From Octopus sinensis (lineage: Eukaryota): a DNA stretch of 26,934 bases. The position numbers were made by a program, and so were the translations under genes. This document shows, piece after piece, positions 8,463 through 26,222 of the stretch (the stretch's first letter is position 1; each line of letters begins with the position of its first letter). The stretch lies in contig NW_021836078.1 in assembly GCF_006345805.1 (NCBI RefSeq), positions 1 through 26,934 on the forward strand, written 5' to 3'. The notes beneath the pieces were generated by a model. The model did no database searches, was not told the origin of the DNA, and worked only from the letters and a program-made list of their open reading frames with translations.

Positions 8463-9267
8463 AGGCTTGATTGTGTGGTTAAGAAACTCGCTTTACAACA
8501 ACGTGGTTTCAGGTTCAGTGCCACAGCGCGGCAGTTTAGGGAAATGTTTTCTACTATAGCCATGAGCCGATCAATGCCTAGTGAGTGAATTTGGTTGACG
8601 GAAACTGTGTAGAAGGCGACGAGCTGGCAGAAACGTTAGCACACCGGGCGAAATGCGTAGCCGTATTTCGTCTGCCGTTACGTTCTGAGTTTAAATTCCG
8701 CCGAGGTCGACTTTGCCTTTCATCCTTTCGAGGTCGATAAATTAAGTACCAGTTACGCACTGGAGTCAATATAATCGACTTAATCCGTTTGTCTGTCCTT
8801 GTTTGTCCTCTCTGTGTTTAGCCCCTTGTGGGTAGTAAAGAAATAGGTATTTCGTCTGCTGCTACATTCTGAGTTCAAATTCCGCCGAGGTCGACTTTGC
8901 CTTTCATCCTTTCGGGGTCGATTAAAGAAGTACCAGTTACGCACTGGGGTCGATATAATCCACTTAATCCGTTTGTCTGTCCTTGTTTGTTCCCTCTGTG
9001 TATAGCCCCTTGTGGGCAGTTAAGAAATAGGAAACTGTGTAGAAGCCCGTCGTGTTTTCATTTTCGTTCTCCATTTTTCTATCCTAGTGTGTTCTGTCTT
9101 TTAGAAGAGTGTATAGTCGAAACGGAAAAGACGTTTCCTTCTTCCTCACCCCATTCCTTGAGTGTACACTTTTTTCCGTTTTTTTTGCTTAGTTTTGTAT
9201 TTACTCGACTAAAATTCCTCAAGGTGGTGCCCATCATAGCCGCAGTCTAATGACTAAAACAAGTAAT
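8463..9267 (+). mobile_element. Diverged SINE B (CORE-like, tRNA-type head) interrupted by SINE A; tail remnant at 9203-9267
   Basis: Matches the well-preserved copy at 14431-14877 (TGTGTGGTTAAG...GGTTCAGT...CTACTATAGCC...GGAAACTG...GCCCGTCG; tail CTCGACTAAA...GCAGTCTAATGACTAAAACAAGT). Confidence 0.75.
8615..9029 (+). mobile_element. SINE A (tail-1), partially dimeric, with 15-bp TSD
   Basis: Head GGCGACGAGCTGGCAGAAACGTTAGC, body GCCTTTCATCCTTTCG.GGTCGAT.AA...GTACCAG, tail ...CCCTTGTGGG...AAGAAATA. Second body+tail at 8847-9029. TSD GGAAACTGTGTAGAA at 8600-8614 and 9030-9044. Confidence 0.9.
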
Positions 9268-10491: not shown

Positions 10492-10745
10492 TTCTTTCTT
10501 CTAAAGGCACAATCCTTTCTTCTAAAGGCACAATCCTTTCTTCTAAAGGCACAAGGCCTGAAATTTTGGGCGACGGGGTTAGTCGATTAGATCGACCCAG
10601 TATGTGACTGGTACTTGATTTATCGACCCTGAAAGGATGAAAGGCAAAGTCGACCTCGGCGGAATTTGAACTCAGAACGTAGTGACAGGCGAAATATCGC
10701 TAAGGATTTCGTCCAGCGTGCTAACGATTCTGCTAGCTCGCCGCC
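10492..10745 (-). mobile_element. SINE A with tail-2 ending in three 21-bp tandem repeats
   Basis: Reverse complement of the A head/body. Tail unit (+ strand) TCCTTTCTTCTAAAGGCACAA x3 at 10492-10554. Confidence 0.9.
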
Positions 10746-11079
10746 TTAGATCAGATATTAATATCTAATCTGAACATCTAAATATCAGAGATGAACTGTT
10801 AGTTATACGAAAATTTTTCAGACCAGTAAACTCATATTTAGAGTTGTGTTAGTGAACCTAGTGGAAAAGAATGTTGTTACTTTAATTTCGGAAGTAAAGA
10901 ATCTTAATCCGAATACAATCTGATATAATGTAAATAATCAGGAATACAACACTAGATGGTGATTGGCTATCAAGTGTATTCTTTTGGCGGCTATCAAGTG
11001 CAATCTTTTATTCTTTTATTCTTTCACTTGCTTCAGTCATTTTGACTGTGGCAATGCTGGAGCAACACCTAAGGTGGTT
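10701..11079 (+). repeat. Left arm of an inverted duplication (partner 14067-14400)
   Basis: The reverse complement of 14067-14400 aligns over SINE A head + ~220-bp spacer + SINE B tail; this arm has an extra ~45 bp. Confidence 0.9.
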
Positions 11080-11278
11080 TTAGTCGACTCCAGGACTTAT
11101 TCTTTGTAAGCCTAGTACTTATTTCATCGGTTCTTATATCGAACCGCTAGATTACAGGTTACAGGGATGTAAACACATCAACATCGGTTGTCAAGCGATG
11201 GTGGAGGGGGGACACAAACAGACACGAACACACAAATACATGCATACATACATACATGGGTTGGGAAGCAAGCTTCTT

Positions 11279-13295
11279 TATTTCATTAAATTTGCCACAA
11301 GGGCAGCACACATAGAGAAGCTTGAGGGCTAGACAAAGACATTAATGGGATGAATGATGATGATATATGGATGATAAGGATGAGAGAAGACGAAAAGCGC
11401 CCGCCGACTTTCGCTTCTCTAAAACATTGTTCTGTTTTTCTTCTTTTTTTTTTAAACACCATGAGGCAATAAACCTCTTACACAGTTCAAAATTAAAAAT
11501 AAAACACAAACACGAGGCAATAATCCTCTCACTTTTTACATTTTTAGTCTCTTTTTGAGGTAATACACCTCTTCAATTTTTCCGCCCGGCCAGGCTCCTC
11601 GCTTCATCGAAGCACCTGGTCCGTTCCGAACTTAAAGGTTTCAACATAAATCTGAAGGAGTCCTTCGGAAAGGAGTTCGTTATCTTCCACAGATCGTTCT
11701 CCCATATGACCTCCGCAGCCACCTGCGAAGGCCACTCAGGATCCTCCGTGTAGGACAGAAGCCCCTCCCACCGGCACTTCCTTTCAATTTTTTTAATTTC
11801 ATTTTGCAAGGTTCCTCCCTTGTGGAAGAGGACCAAAAATTCCTCCTCCAGCAGCACACCCGCCAAAGGTGAATCGGGACACGCCGGCAGCGTGTCACAA
11901 CCCGCCGGCAATGTCCCGTTTTTCTATTTTCTTTTCTTTTTCCCATGGGCTGCGGGAGGGCGGTGTTCCCTTGCTGTGTCCAGCAGGTCCTCCTTTTCTC
12001 CCGCAGCTCTCGGGTTCTTCGGTGGGCAACCATTGTTGCCCACCTTTCGCTTTCGTTTTTTCGAGGAGGTGGAAACCTCCTCGACATCCTCCTCCTTCTC
12101 TCCCTCCATTGAGGGAGCAGGGAGTGGTTCCTCTGTTAACTGCTCCAGGATCCTATTTTGGTCCTTGGGGCAGTTTTTCTTGATGTGGCCGGTCTCCATT
12201 CACAGGTGACACTTGTGGGGGGGGGCGTCCCTCGAGCATCACCGGATACCTAGACCCGGCCATCCTAAAAAAATCTGGGAAAACCAGACTTTCGGCTGAT
12301 TGGGTCCATAGGGTCAACACAGCTTTTGATCCCTCCCAATCAGCCGCAGGCAAAATTTTTACGTTGAGCAGCTTGGTACTGCTACCACTCAGACCCCGGC
12401 GGATAGAGTCCTCTATCCACTCGGGCTCAATTCCGGGTGGCAAGCCGCAAACCCAAGCCCTCGTAAACTTCTTTCCACAATAACTGGGAAGAAACATTAT
12501 TTCCTTCCCCTCGGGGAAGCTTCTTTGGGGGAGTCAAATAGCAACCAGACCGTTTCAAATTTGACTCCCGTGAAATAAATTTAATAGCTGGCATGTATTC
12601 TGCCAGCTCTTTCAAAATTGTGGCTTTCGGGAAGATGGTTATGATATCGAGCGACTTTGAATAAGTCCTCAACACCACCGTCTTCCTTTCGAGCTCTTTT
12701 AGCCATGATTTGGGAGGTGTTAATTCCCACACTAATATTTCGTTTGCCATTTTTTTTAAAATAAAAAGTTAAAATACAGTTCGTCAATACGTTTTCAAAT
12801 AAAGAAAGGTACACACACACAAAAAAAAAAAGAAAGAAGACACAACAGAAGAGAAGAAAAAATAAAAATAACAGTTCGAATAAAGTTTTTTTTTATTTTA
12901 AATAAATGATAGCTGTGAAAAGAGAGTTCAAATCCAGGCAAAGAAATAAATTTTCGGCCGAAAGGTACTCCTGGCCAATCCTTTTAATCCACGTGGGCAC
13001 AAAAATTTTAAAATACAATTTCTCACAATTATGTGAGACAACACACGTCTCCACCGTAAGGCAGAAAAAAAGCTTCGAATCCAGTAAGGACTCCCTGCCT
13101 GTTCAAAAAAATAAAACCAACAGGCAACAAATCCTACCGGACTCAAAAAGCAAAATGTCTTACCTTACAGTAGAGCGTCTTTCAGTTCAACTTTCGCCAG
13201 CGTGACGACTTCAACAGGTGAGTGAAGAACACTGTTTTTGTTCTTTTTTCTTTTTAGGACGGAGCTCAAGGCTAGACATCTTCTCAGTTCAACCC
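11279..13295 (-). mobile_element. Non-autonomous non-LTR retroelement encoding only ORF1 (L1/Tx1-like, HAL1-type architecture)
   Basis: Perfect 15-bp TSD GGAAGCAAGCTTCTT at 11264-11278 and 13296-13310. ~545-bp 5' region, ORF1, ~295-bp 3' region ending ...CCCTTGTGGCAAATTTAATGAAATA. No RT, endonuclease, LTRs or TIRs. Confidence 0.8.
11573..12750 (-). pseudogene. Disrupted ~390-aa gag-like/ORF1 nucleic-acid-binding protein with CCHC zinc knuckle
   Basis: ORF fragments 12427-12750, 12153-12497, 11924-12199 and 11573-11911 join across frameshifts/stops. ...TRAWVCGLPPGIEPEWI...LEGRPP-KCHL*METGHIKKNCPK is CX2CX4HX4C with the second Cys mutated to TGA, followed by acidic and KKRKRK stretches. Confidence 0.8.
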
Positions 13296-13482
13296 GGAAG
13301 CAAGCTTCTTACCACACAGCCACGCCTGCACTTGCGTATGTATATATATTTTTTCTATCGTGGGTAGAAAGCCAGGTGAGGATGTAAGCAATTGCACCAA
13401 ACTCAATACTTTATTGGTACTTTATTTTATCAATTCCGCAAGGAACAAAAAGGAAGTTGTAAATGTAAACATCTTTTTTACT

Positions 13483-13700: not shown

Positions 13701-13915
13701 TATTGATTTTCAATTTTGGCACAAGGCCAGCAATTTCGAGGGAGGAGTAAGTCGATTACATCGATCCCAGTGTTCAACTGGTACTTATTCTATCGGTCTC
13801 AAAAGGATGAAAAGCAAAATCGACCTCGGCTGAATTTGAACCCAGAATGTAAAGACGGACAAAATGCTGTTAAGTATTTTGCCCGGCGTGCTAACGATTC
13901 TGTCGGCTCACCACC
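13701..13915 (-). mobile_element. SINE A with tail-3, probable ~12-bp TSD
   Basis: Full head/body; tail (minus strand) ...GAAATTGCTGGCCTTGTGCCAAAATTGAAAATCAATA. Flanks TGCCGATGTAAA (13689-13700) and TGTCGATGTAAA (13918-13929). Confidence 0.85.
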
Positions 13916-14066
13916 TATGTCGATGTAAACGAGATTAGTACTCGAAATATTATTGTCTTAATATCTTGCCTGCTTGCGGGAGATAGCAATAAATAGAACA
14001 TGTTTATTCATTGATTCAGAAGCAAGGAAAATGTCATTTATCACTTTGATTGATTAATGTATTTAC

Positions 14067-14400
14067 AACCAATTTAGGTGGTGCTCCAGCATGGCCACAG
14101 TCAAAATGACTGAAACAAGTAAAAGAATAAAAAGCCAATCACCATCGTGTGTTGTATTTCTGACTGTCTACTTTATAGCAGATTGTATTCGAATTAAGAT
14201 TCTTTATTTCCGAACTTAGAGTAACAATATTCTTTTCCACTAGGTTCACCAACACAACTCTAAATATGAGCCTACTAGTCTGAAAATTTTTCGTATAACT
14301 AACAGTTCATCTCTGATATTTAGGTGTTCAGATTATATATTAATATCTGGTCTGAGGCGGCGAGCTGGCAGAATCGTTAGCACGCTGGACGAAATCCTTA
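14067..14400 (-). repeat. Right arm of the inverted duplication (partner 10701-11079)
   Basis: See left arm. Confidence 0.9.
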
Positions 14401-14430: not shown

Positions 14431-14623
14431 GGTGCAGGAGTGGCTGTGTGGAAAGTAGCTTACTTACCAACCACATGGTTCCGGGATCAGTCCTACTGCG
14501 TTGCACCTTGGGCAAGTGTCTTCTACTATAGCCTCGGGCTGACCAAAGCCTTGTGAGTGGATTTGGTAGATGGAAACTGAAAGAAGACCGCCGAATATAT
14601 ATATATATATATATAATAATATA

Positions 14624-23638: not shown

Positions 23639-23691
23639 TTACCAGAGAATCTTTGGTAAAATTATATCTTTTTGATATTTTGTCAAACTCT

Positions 23692-23840
23692 AAGGTAGCT
23701 AGTTGGCAGAATCGTCAAATTGCTGGACAAAATGTTTAGCGGCATTTCATCCGCCTTTATGTTCTGAGTTCAAATTTCGCTGAGGTCGACTTTGCCTTTC
23801 ATCCTTTCGGAGTTGGTAAACTAAGTACCAGTCGAGCACT
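23692..23840 (+). mobile_element. 3'-truncated SINE A followed by (CA)n
   Basis: TTGGCAGAATCG...GTTCTGAGTTCAAATT...GCCTTTCATCCTTTCGG...AAGTACCAG. Confidence 0.85.
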
Positions 23841-25540: not shown

Positions 25541-26222
25541 GCGTTGAATAGTTGAGAACCTTGCTTTCCAGCAATATGGTCTTGGATTCAGTTCCATTGC
25601 GTGGCATCTTGGGCAAGAGTCTTCTGCTGTAGCTCCGGGTCGATTTGGCGGACGGAAACTGAAGCCTGTCGGCGAGCTGGCAGAAACGTTAGCACGAAGA
25701 GCGGAATGCTTAGCGGTATTTCGTCTGCCGTTACGTTCTGAGTTCAAATTCCGCCGAGGTCGATTTTGCCTTTCATCCTTTCGGGGTTGATAAATTAAGT
25801 ACCAGTTACGCACTGGGGTCGATATAATTGACTGACTCCCTTTGTCTGTCCTTGTTTGTCCCCTCTATGTTTAGCCCCTGGTGGGCAATAAAGAAATAGG
25901 AAACTGAAGTCTGTCGTATACATACATACATACATACATACATACTACATACATACATAAACAAGTGCGCGGTGGGTAGGGGTGTGCGCGCACACGCTTC
26001 CAGGTGTGTGTTTTTGTGTTTATCTCTCCCTCACTGCCTGACAACCGGAGGTGGTTTGTTTGCTTTCCTGCAATTCAGCAGTTCTGCAAAAGAGACTGAT
26101 GGAGTAAGTGTCAGACTTAAAGAAAATTACTTAAAGAAAAAGTACGATTTGTTCGACTAGACTTTTCAAGACGATGTCCCAGCATGGTCGCAGTCCAATG
26201 TCTGAAGCAAGTAAAAGATAAA
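25541..26222 (+). mobile_element. Diverged SINE B interrupted by SINE A
   Basis: Core GCATCTTGGGCAAGAGTCTTCT; tail ...CCAGCATGGTCGCAGTCCAATGTCTGAAGCAAGTAAAAGATA. Confidence 0.85.
25671..25898 (+). mobile_element. Well-preserved SINE A (tail-1) with 17-bp TSD
   Basis: TSD GGAAACTGAAGCCTGTC (25654-25670) / GGAAACTGAAGTCTGTC (25899-25915). Confidence 0.92.

Follow-up and report, generated by a model that had tools for sequence, protein, structure and literature searches.

The window analysed here, a 26,934-nt stretch of the Octopus sinensis genome, very probably carries a dead copy of an ORF1-only non-LTR retroelement family that inserts at one fixed base of a SINE and whose members would be copied in trans by an endonuclease-reverse transcriptase (RT) LINE with the same site and a shared tail. 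The 3′-UTR box of these elements is the reverse complement of the first 8-9 bases of the target, and its central base follows the target variant. We refer to the ORF1-only elements as passengers and to the endonuclease-RT LINE as the partner or, in its presumed role, the helper.

A decayed ORF1-only element splits the head of a SINE

The element measures 2017 bp and lies on the minus strand, co-oriented with its host SINE (Table 1). When the flanks were joined, the SINE was restored, with its head split just 3′ of an A-box-like motif. The 15-bp direct repeat that bounds the element is exact, does not extend on either side and is absent elsewhere in the window, so that the coordinates, the length and the perfect repeat given in an earlier note, made from the letters of the window, were right, as was its statement that element and SINE share one orientation. 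That note had called the repeat a target site duplication. The exact 15-mer stands, but it need not be a pure duplication of the target, because in full-length copies of sister subfamilies the 5′ repeat often differs from the local target. It had also placed the insertion between the A- and B-box regions, labels that we presume to be appropriate for these motifs of the SINE head. This position applies to the family and fails for the window copy, because alignment to an intact SINE revealed that the host copy lacks ~110 nt directly after the target, B-box region included. No tRNA was called on the SINE head, either by ARAGORN in the window or by Rfam in an intact SINE copy.

With P0001, a naturally open copy, as a guide, the ORF1 remnant could be followed as four frame pieces of 82-95% identity, with frame breaks near positions 12569, 12516 and 12219 and one stop inside the zinc knuckle, in agreement with the single disrupted zinc-knuckle frame previously read from this DNA. 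A remnant of ORF2 (endonuclease/RT) was not found in the window, where the best tblastn match of the partner ORF2 had an E value of 7.1, and there is no poly(A) at the end of the element; the earlier note had reported both absences. The ends of the element share no repeat beyond the 15-mer, and LTR-type terminal repeats are thus absent.

Other repeats surround the element. A second abundant repeat occurs at 8613-9031, 10596-10747, 13744-13916, 23689-23840 and 25666-25900, and three checked copies of it end in a tail resembling that of L1-group LINEs that are not at the SINE site. The regions 10701-10968 and 14133-14400 hold a 268-nt repeat in inverted orientation to each other (91% complementarity); this pair brackets the element and is probably a single repeat present twice. 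Two empty heads of the host SINE, without any insertion, are located at 14442 and 15036 on the plus strand.

Table 1. Features of the window element and of its host SINE
Feature	Position	Strand	Basis or remark
ORF1-only non-LTR retroelement, full length, decayed	11279..13295	-	near-full-length relatives with the same ends
5′-UTR	12751..13295	-	flanked by the 5′ repeat and the start codon of ORF1
ORF1 remnant: RRM-RRM-CCHC, disordered linker, C-terminal alpha/beta domain; 3 frame breaks and a stop	11573..12750	-	open natural copy P0001 as guide
3′-UTR without poly(A); last ~65 nt share homology with the tail of the partner LINE	11279..11572	-	
Antisense box AAGCTTCT, reverse complement of target bases 2-9	11316..11323	-	
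Tail hairpin TGCC-N5-GGCA, common to the partner; stem variants compensatory	11293..11305	-	
Target repeat at the 3′ end ('A', the older SINE-head variant)	11264..11278	-	
5′ copy of the 15-bp target repeat	13296..13310	-	in sister subfamilies, derived in part from the donor
Host SINE head, 5′ part, including the A-box-like motif	13311..13332	-	empty site aligned to an intact SINE copy
Remainder of the host SINE, B-box region deleted	11010..11263	-	alignment to an intact SINE copy

Passenger copies form a family that keeps ORF1

A genome DNA search, in which 40 of 2680 candidates were scored, returned at least 21 other near-full-length copies with 87-93% identity to the window element. Copy P0001 has an open ORF of 397 aa, and a search with the ORF1 protein gave at least 107 matches, with identity down to ~52% and many open frames. 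All 20 further ORF1 loci that were retrieved together with ~6.5 kb of downstream sequence lacked an RT frame and were in or adjoining the same SINE site; passenger units among them measured ~2.1-2.5 kb where both ends were present. The HAL1-type, ORF1-only family suspected in the earlier note is therefore supported, since other ~2-kb copies with the same ends, as well as sister subfamilies, lack ORF2, and the opposite case it had envisaged, in which all other copies would carry ORF2, does not apply.

The single-sequence fold of ORF1 reached a pLDDT of 39, and the model obtained from a 41-sequence alignment a pLDDT of 77. This model predicts two RRM-like domains, a knuckle, a disordered linker and a C-terminal domain, and it matched tandem-RRM proteins (Foldseek E = 3e-5) and La (Z 9.6, rmsd 2.8 over 83 residues). 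Pfam and PDB sequence searches with ORF1 alone gave weak knuckle matches only; Pfam zf-CCHC was detected in 26 of the 41 alignment members and not in P0001 itself, and L1 ORF1p was absent from the PDB sequence and fold matches listed for the passenger ORF1. Across eight open ORFs, dN/dS was 0.13-0.28 for the N-terminal 205 codons (28 pairs) and 0.32-0.77 for the C-terminal part (two pairs saturated). By this measure, ORF1 of the passenger subfamilies is under purifying selection. Residues 305-394 of P0001 are confidently predicted to form a small alpha/beta domain, which evolves faster than the RRM part.

We considered whether the window unit could have arisen from an ordinary LINE by an internal deletion, one-off or recent, or as a retrocopy of an LTR gag or of a host gene. 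Its zinc knuckles do match retroviral nucleocapsids and host proteins, and one atlas cluster is ZCCHC3-like; however, these nucleocapsid and host matches in the PDB span little beyond the knuckle, and there are no terminal repeats. The predicted fold, with two RRMs and a CCHC knuckle, and the kinship to the ORF1 of an endonuclease-RT element (27% identity) argue against the LTR-type gag or host protein that the earlier note had kept as an alternative. As for a deletion, it has to contend with the other near-full-length copies and with a DNA similarity to the intact partner that is restricted to 18-23 nt stretches, and the selection acting on ORF1 across subfamilies is at odds with a deletion and a retrocopy alike. 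We therefore hold either origin to be extremely improbable.

Insertion occurs at one base of the SINE

The last base of the element was reached in 27 of 30 loci, and all 27 (two of them duplicates of each other) join the same SINE base in the same orientation. HAL1 proper has a poly(A) tail, whereas these 27 ends join the target directly, with no poly(A). Truncated copies, such as L263, L272, L069 and L071, have their own 10-16 bp duplications, with both flanks sharing the local variant, and range in length from 23 to 1477 nt. Because each carries its own duplication with local variants, these copies were inserted independently, a test that Kojima used for SINEU-3 (PMC4494074). A pattern search for ultra-short insertions, with ≤60 nt between two targets, found 19 matches, 18 of them element-like. 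Different subfamilies were also found in mixed tandem stacks with a target between each element, the longest of which covers at least 25 kb on contig C7.

A common site could in principle reflect descent, if a single SINE-plus-insert composite had been amplified as a unit. All copies indeed have SINE sequence on both sides, and the 5′ target-like sequence is partly inherited from donors. The duplications of the truncated copies nevertheless largely refute such a composite; the occupation of the same base by autonomous elements and by elements whose ORF1 proteins are 24-60% identical, the existence of mixed stacks and the differences among the host SINE copies point the same way, leaving this explanation with next to no probability. 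On the evidence of these junctions, nesting in the SINE head is strict site targeting, common to the autonomous partner, and not chance.

Within the stretch C7:10434000-10459999 (genome G000, L141-L143), a stack contains more than 12 different ORF1-only elements, many with the same variant of target base 9. This stack also includes at least two further ORF1-only lineages, L143:6513-7421 and L142:5013-5972, with open ORFs that are only 21-23% identical to P0001; the lineage at L143:6513-7421 is without the antisense box.

SINE heads differ at target base 4, where the older variant has A and the younger one T. Empty heads among the collected loci comprised 10 A and 55 T copies, with divergences of 12% and 6% respectively, and a count of exact empty sites gave 4505 A versus 55,098 T (A = 7.6% of 59,603). 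The tail of the window element is followed by the A-variant target 29 times and by T once, and this sole T-target copy with a window-type tail is a member of another subfamily. The tail of the young helper, for its part, precedes a T target 72 times and an A target once. Copies at A sites are older than those at T sites (median nearest-neighbour identity of 93.7 vs 97.0%).

An autonomous LINE occupies the same site and has the same tail

The earlier note had proposed a search for an autonomous partner sharing the tail. A 5.4-kb endonuclease-RT element proved to be present at the same site, seen first in a tandem stack as an ORF1 and an RT fragment with the same tail and the same target. Every one of the 30 fetched loci of this family ends at the SINE site, whereas none of the top 30 zf-RVT loci, which belong to other L1-group families, does. 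Full copies are 5.4 kb long, and one has an end-to-end open ORF2 of 1130 aa, whose frame departs from that of sister copies over a short segment around residues 335-360. ORF2 comprises endonuclease (EN), RT and zf-RVT domains, and its best PDB match was human L1 ORF2p (E = 3e-65). An L1-group ORF2 with AP endonuclease, RT and a C-terminal zinc motif, together with the preference for a multicopy target sequence at 30/30 loci, corresponds to the feature set of Tx1 elements. The L1/Tx1-group placement suggested earlier is thus supported, by features rather than by phylogeny; among the 120 partner RT matches listed there was no named Tx1 reference, and the closest named homolog among them was from Argonauta hians (63%).

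The ORF1 of the partner is related to that of P0001 (27% identity over 195 aa, E = 6e-17). At the DNA level, the partner and the window element share stretches of 18-23 nt plus a looser homology over the last ~65 nt, and the stems of the tail hairpin display compensatory changes across subfamilies. Because ORF1 is only 27% identical and the DNA similarity is limited, the passenger is, as far as sequence divergence can tell, an old lineage separate from its partner.

The same site and the same tail make it likely that the passenger is mobilised in trans by the ORF2 protein of the partner, and an analogy with TRE5-A.2 (PMC3159450) and with the ORF1-only class (PMC5786205) likewise points to trans-mobilisation as likely. 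The direct helper of the window copy is known from broken copies only, because the young partner prefers the T variant and its ORF1 is only 27% identical. Older, broken autonomous copies do occur at A sites, with ORF2 71-85% identical, and these are plausible helpers of the window copy. In sequencing contigs, the depth of the partner tail region is thousands of times that of its body, which is consistent with a very common SINE sharing the tail of the partner.

Two observations concern related L1-group elements. At L169:2228-2391, in a single case, a complete U1 snRNA gene follows immediately after the end of one such element. Another related family has the same 3′ flank in four loci (L170, L173-L175), some of them ~5.3 kb apart; this flank, without an Rfam match in L170, suggests tandem arrays or a different fixed target.

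The antisense box changes together with the target

The box of the window element is located ~44 nt before the end and is complementary to target bases 2-9. At that position, T-site passengers have AGCTAC or AGCTAAC. Autonomous elements have their box ~79 nt before the end, where T-site copies read AAGCTACTT and A-site copies AGCTTCTT. The two positions, ~-44 and ~-79, do not align and represent non-homologous places.

A genome-wide pattern search gave 1183 matches, compared to 299 for a reversed control. From the first 100 of the 1183 rows, six non-element rows and two in which the motif was the 5′ duplication were set aside; by hand count, the 92 element-like rows comprised 69 with T box and T target, 22 with A box and A target, and one discordant. 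The collected loci provided 202 candidate junctions, of which 172 pass a stricter filter, at least one false junction (L141) remaining among them. Junctions of ORF1-only elements were concordant in 41 + 53 cases and discordant in two, with three mutated at the target base and 11 without an intact box (one of these 11 being a false junction). Autonomous junctions were concordant in 5 + 26 cases, never discordant, and without an intact box once, and unclassified short copies included 11 + 1 concordant and two discordant junctions, the rest having no usable box. A second ORF1-only lineage at the same site has no box in 8/8 junctions, and a T-type box was found at four A-site junctions (L021, L271, L272 and L276).

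On a tree of ORF1 DNA that excludes the tail (91 of 106 rows, the 15 without the ORF1 stretch being left out), three target switches are needed, forced by the starred branches. Of the three independent pairs on this tree, two or three have a box that follows the target and none goes the opposite way, a covariation that cannot reach significance because the copies are related and the tree offers only these three pairs. The helper lineage adds one further, fourth, switch. Tails have been exchanged between subfamilies (L014, L021), and because tails can swap in this manner, some of the target switches may share one origin.

When the window tail was folded together with the read-through sequence, the prediction was a box-target helix around the hairpin, at -16.7 kcal/mol compared to -7.2 kcal/mol without read-through, with a z-score of only -1.98. 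The predicted pairing exceeded 0.5 in 31 of 32 autonomous junctions, in 40 of 50 A-site passenger junctions and in 30 of 56 T-site passenger junctions. That the box changes in step with the target suggests a pairing between RNA and landing sequence, and these folds are in line with the likely pairing of the box with read-through RNA.

Transcripts would start and end inside target sequence

Relatives that are not at the SINE site have an AATAAA a few bases before their last base. SINE-targeting tails are without AATAAA, which re-forms only across the junction with the SINE, so the 3′ end of the transcript would lie inside the SINE; lacking an internal poly(A) signal, the transcript is likely to read through into the downstream SINE. 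At the other end, full-length T-site copies have odd 5′ target-like variants that recur at unrelated loci and are absent from the 3′ duplication of the same copies; one variant was shared by 7 loci, a second by 6 and a partial copy, and others by 2-3. This recurrence makes it likely that part of the 5′ repeat is carried by RNA, and that transcripts start inside the upstream target. For A-type full-length copies, the numbers of unshared differences between 5′ and 3′ repeats (3 vs 10 in 27 copies) are too few to call. At the 5′ ends of the T-site elements L116, L118, L139 and L142, the T-type repeat of the element itself is followed by an apparent relic of an A-type target, the older variant, possibly a fossil of an earlier landing site.

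Proposed mechanism and possible role of the box

We propose that the ORF2 protein of the partner has a double role, recognition of the tail hairpin and nicking of the bottom target strand; the helper endonuclease is what most likely sets the insertion site. The transcript would read through into the downstream SINE, and pairing between the box and this SINE-derived stretch would create a helix that encloses the hairpin. The read-through RNA would then anneal to the nicked strand and prime reverse transcription, as proposed for R1Bm and SART1Bm. While the A variant of the SINE was being replaced by T, each lineage would have followed, with the helix restored by a compensatory change.

The box might alternatively act as a guide: it would bind the top strand of the new target DNA, once displaced, with the read-through annealed to the nicked bottom strand, and the RNA would thereby help to choose the SINE variant. 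Young T-type elements are present at A sites in 2 of 143 cases, compared to 7.6% A among empty targets (binomial p = 0.001 with copies taken as independent, which is optimistic because they are not). However, an endonuclease preference predicts the same avoidance of A sites, and A-site copies are older, so that succession covers most of the pattern. Of the 19 ultra-short insertions, five terminate at the edge of the box, 35-37 nt before the end (hand count), but ~7 of the 19 stop inside the hairpin, junction microhomology may account for the others, and insertion lengths do not tell an RNA-RNA from an RNA-DNA helix. Structures of R2 show contacts of template RNA with second-strand DNA, although these are at the level of single bases, with no 8-9 nt antisense segment in the portions of that report available to us (PMC12180492). 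Finally, the box-less lineage and the four discordant copies still reach the site. Taken together, a guiding role of the box appears unlikely to us. An RNA end that holds both target strands as a helix and swaps partners with the nicked duplex, so that a one-base change in RNA would retarget the element, the box having arisen at places that differ between autonomous and ORF1-only lineages, is in our judgement an equally doubtful proposition. We thus favour the pairing of the box with read-through RNA, with the endonuclease of the helper setting the site.

Discussion

ORF1-only LINEs are already known, as non-autonomous elements such as HAL1 (half-L1), HeT-A and Ag-Sponge (PMC5786205, PMC5753468), and so are Tx1-clade elements that target other transposons, including Tx1 in Tx1D and Tx1-Mar, with SINEU, in Mariner-N4_AMi (PMC4494074). 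Like the former, which derive from the L1, Jockey and CR1 clades, the octopus passenger encodes ORF1p only, keeps a LINE 3′ end and was amplified as a family. As far as the available parts of those reports describe them, it differs from them in its RRM-RRM-CCHC ORF1, in the absence of poly(A), in its fixed SINE site and in its target-complementary box. With Tx1 and Tx1-Mar it has in common a transposon target used by autonomous and non-autonomous partners, tandem copies that sandwich the duplication, sequences added at 5′ ends and truncated copies that prove independent insertion. In the octopus, by contrast, the target is one base of a SINE head, the passenger is protein-coding and there is a 3′-UTR box, of which the accessible text makes no mention for Tx1 or Tx1-Mar (PMC4494074).

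Dictyostelium TRE5-A.2 is likewise ORF1-only; it is moved in trans by the ORF2 of its partner, inserts near pol III genes and needs a 3′ RNA structure. According to the part of its description at hand, it is a plain deletion derivative that reaches positions ~50 bp upstream of tRNA genes through protein contact with TFIIIB (PMC3159450), whereas the octopus site is a sequence and the passenger ORF1 has diverged far from that of its partner. SART1Bm, R1Bm and R2 resemble the system proposed for the octopus in that target-like RNA anneals to the nicked strand and, in R2, RNA touches second-strand DNA (PMC7265360, PMC12180492). The RNA motifs described in the portions available for these elements have the same sense as the target and base-pair to the primer strand. 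The octopus box, by contrast, is an antisense segment of 8-9 nt whose sequence covaries with that of the target.

What is new is a target-mirroring 3′-UTR box that swaps with the target variant. Neither an octopod SINE-targeting family nor an antisense target box appeared in article titles and abstract openings, a body of text that includes few subscription journals, and a Repbase or Dfam entry may exist.

The system is a layered parasite, in which an autonomous LINE and several protein-coding passenger lineages live in the promoter region of one abundant SINE, and both partner and passengers have tracked this SINE as its dominant variant changed. It constitutes a natural test of what ORF1-only elements gain by keeping ORF1, and of whether template RNA takes part in target choice by endonuclease-RT LINEs, a question that a single covarying base pair makes directly testable. 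If it were true that RNA steers insertion, this would matter for the use of retrotransposon proteins in site-specific gene insertion.
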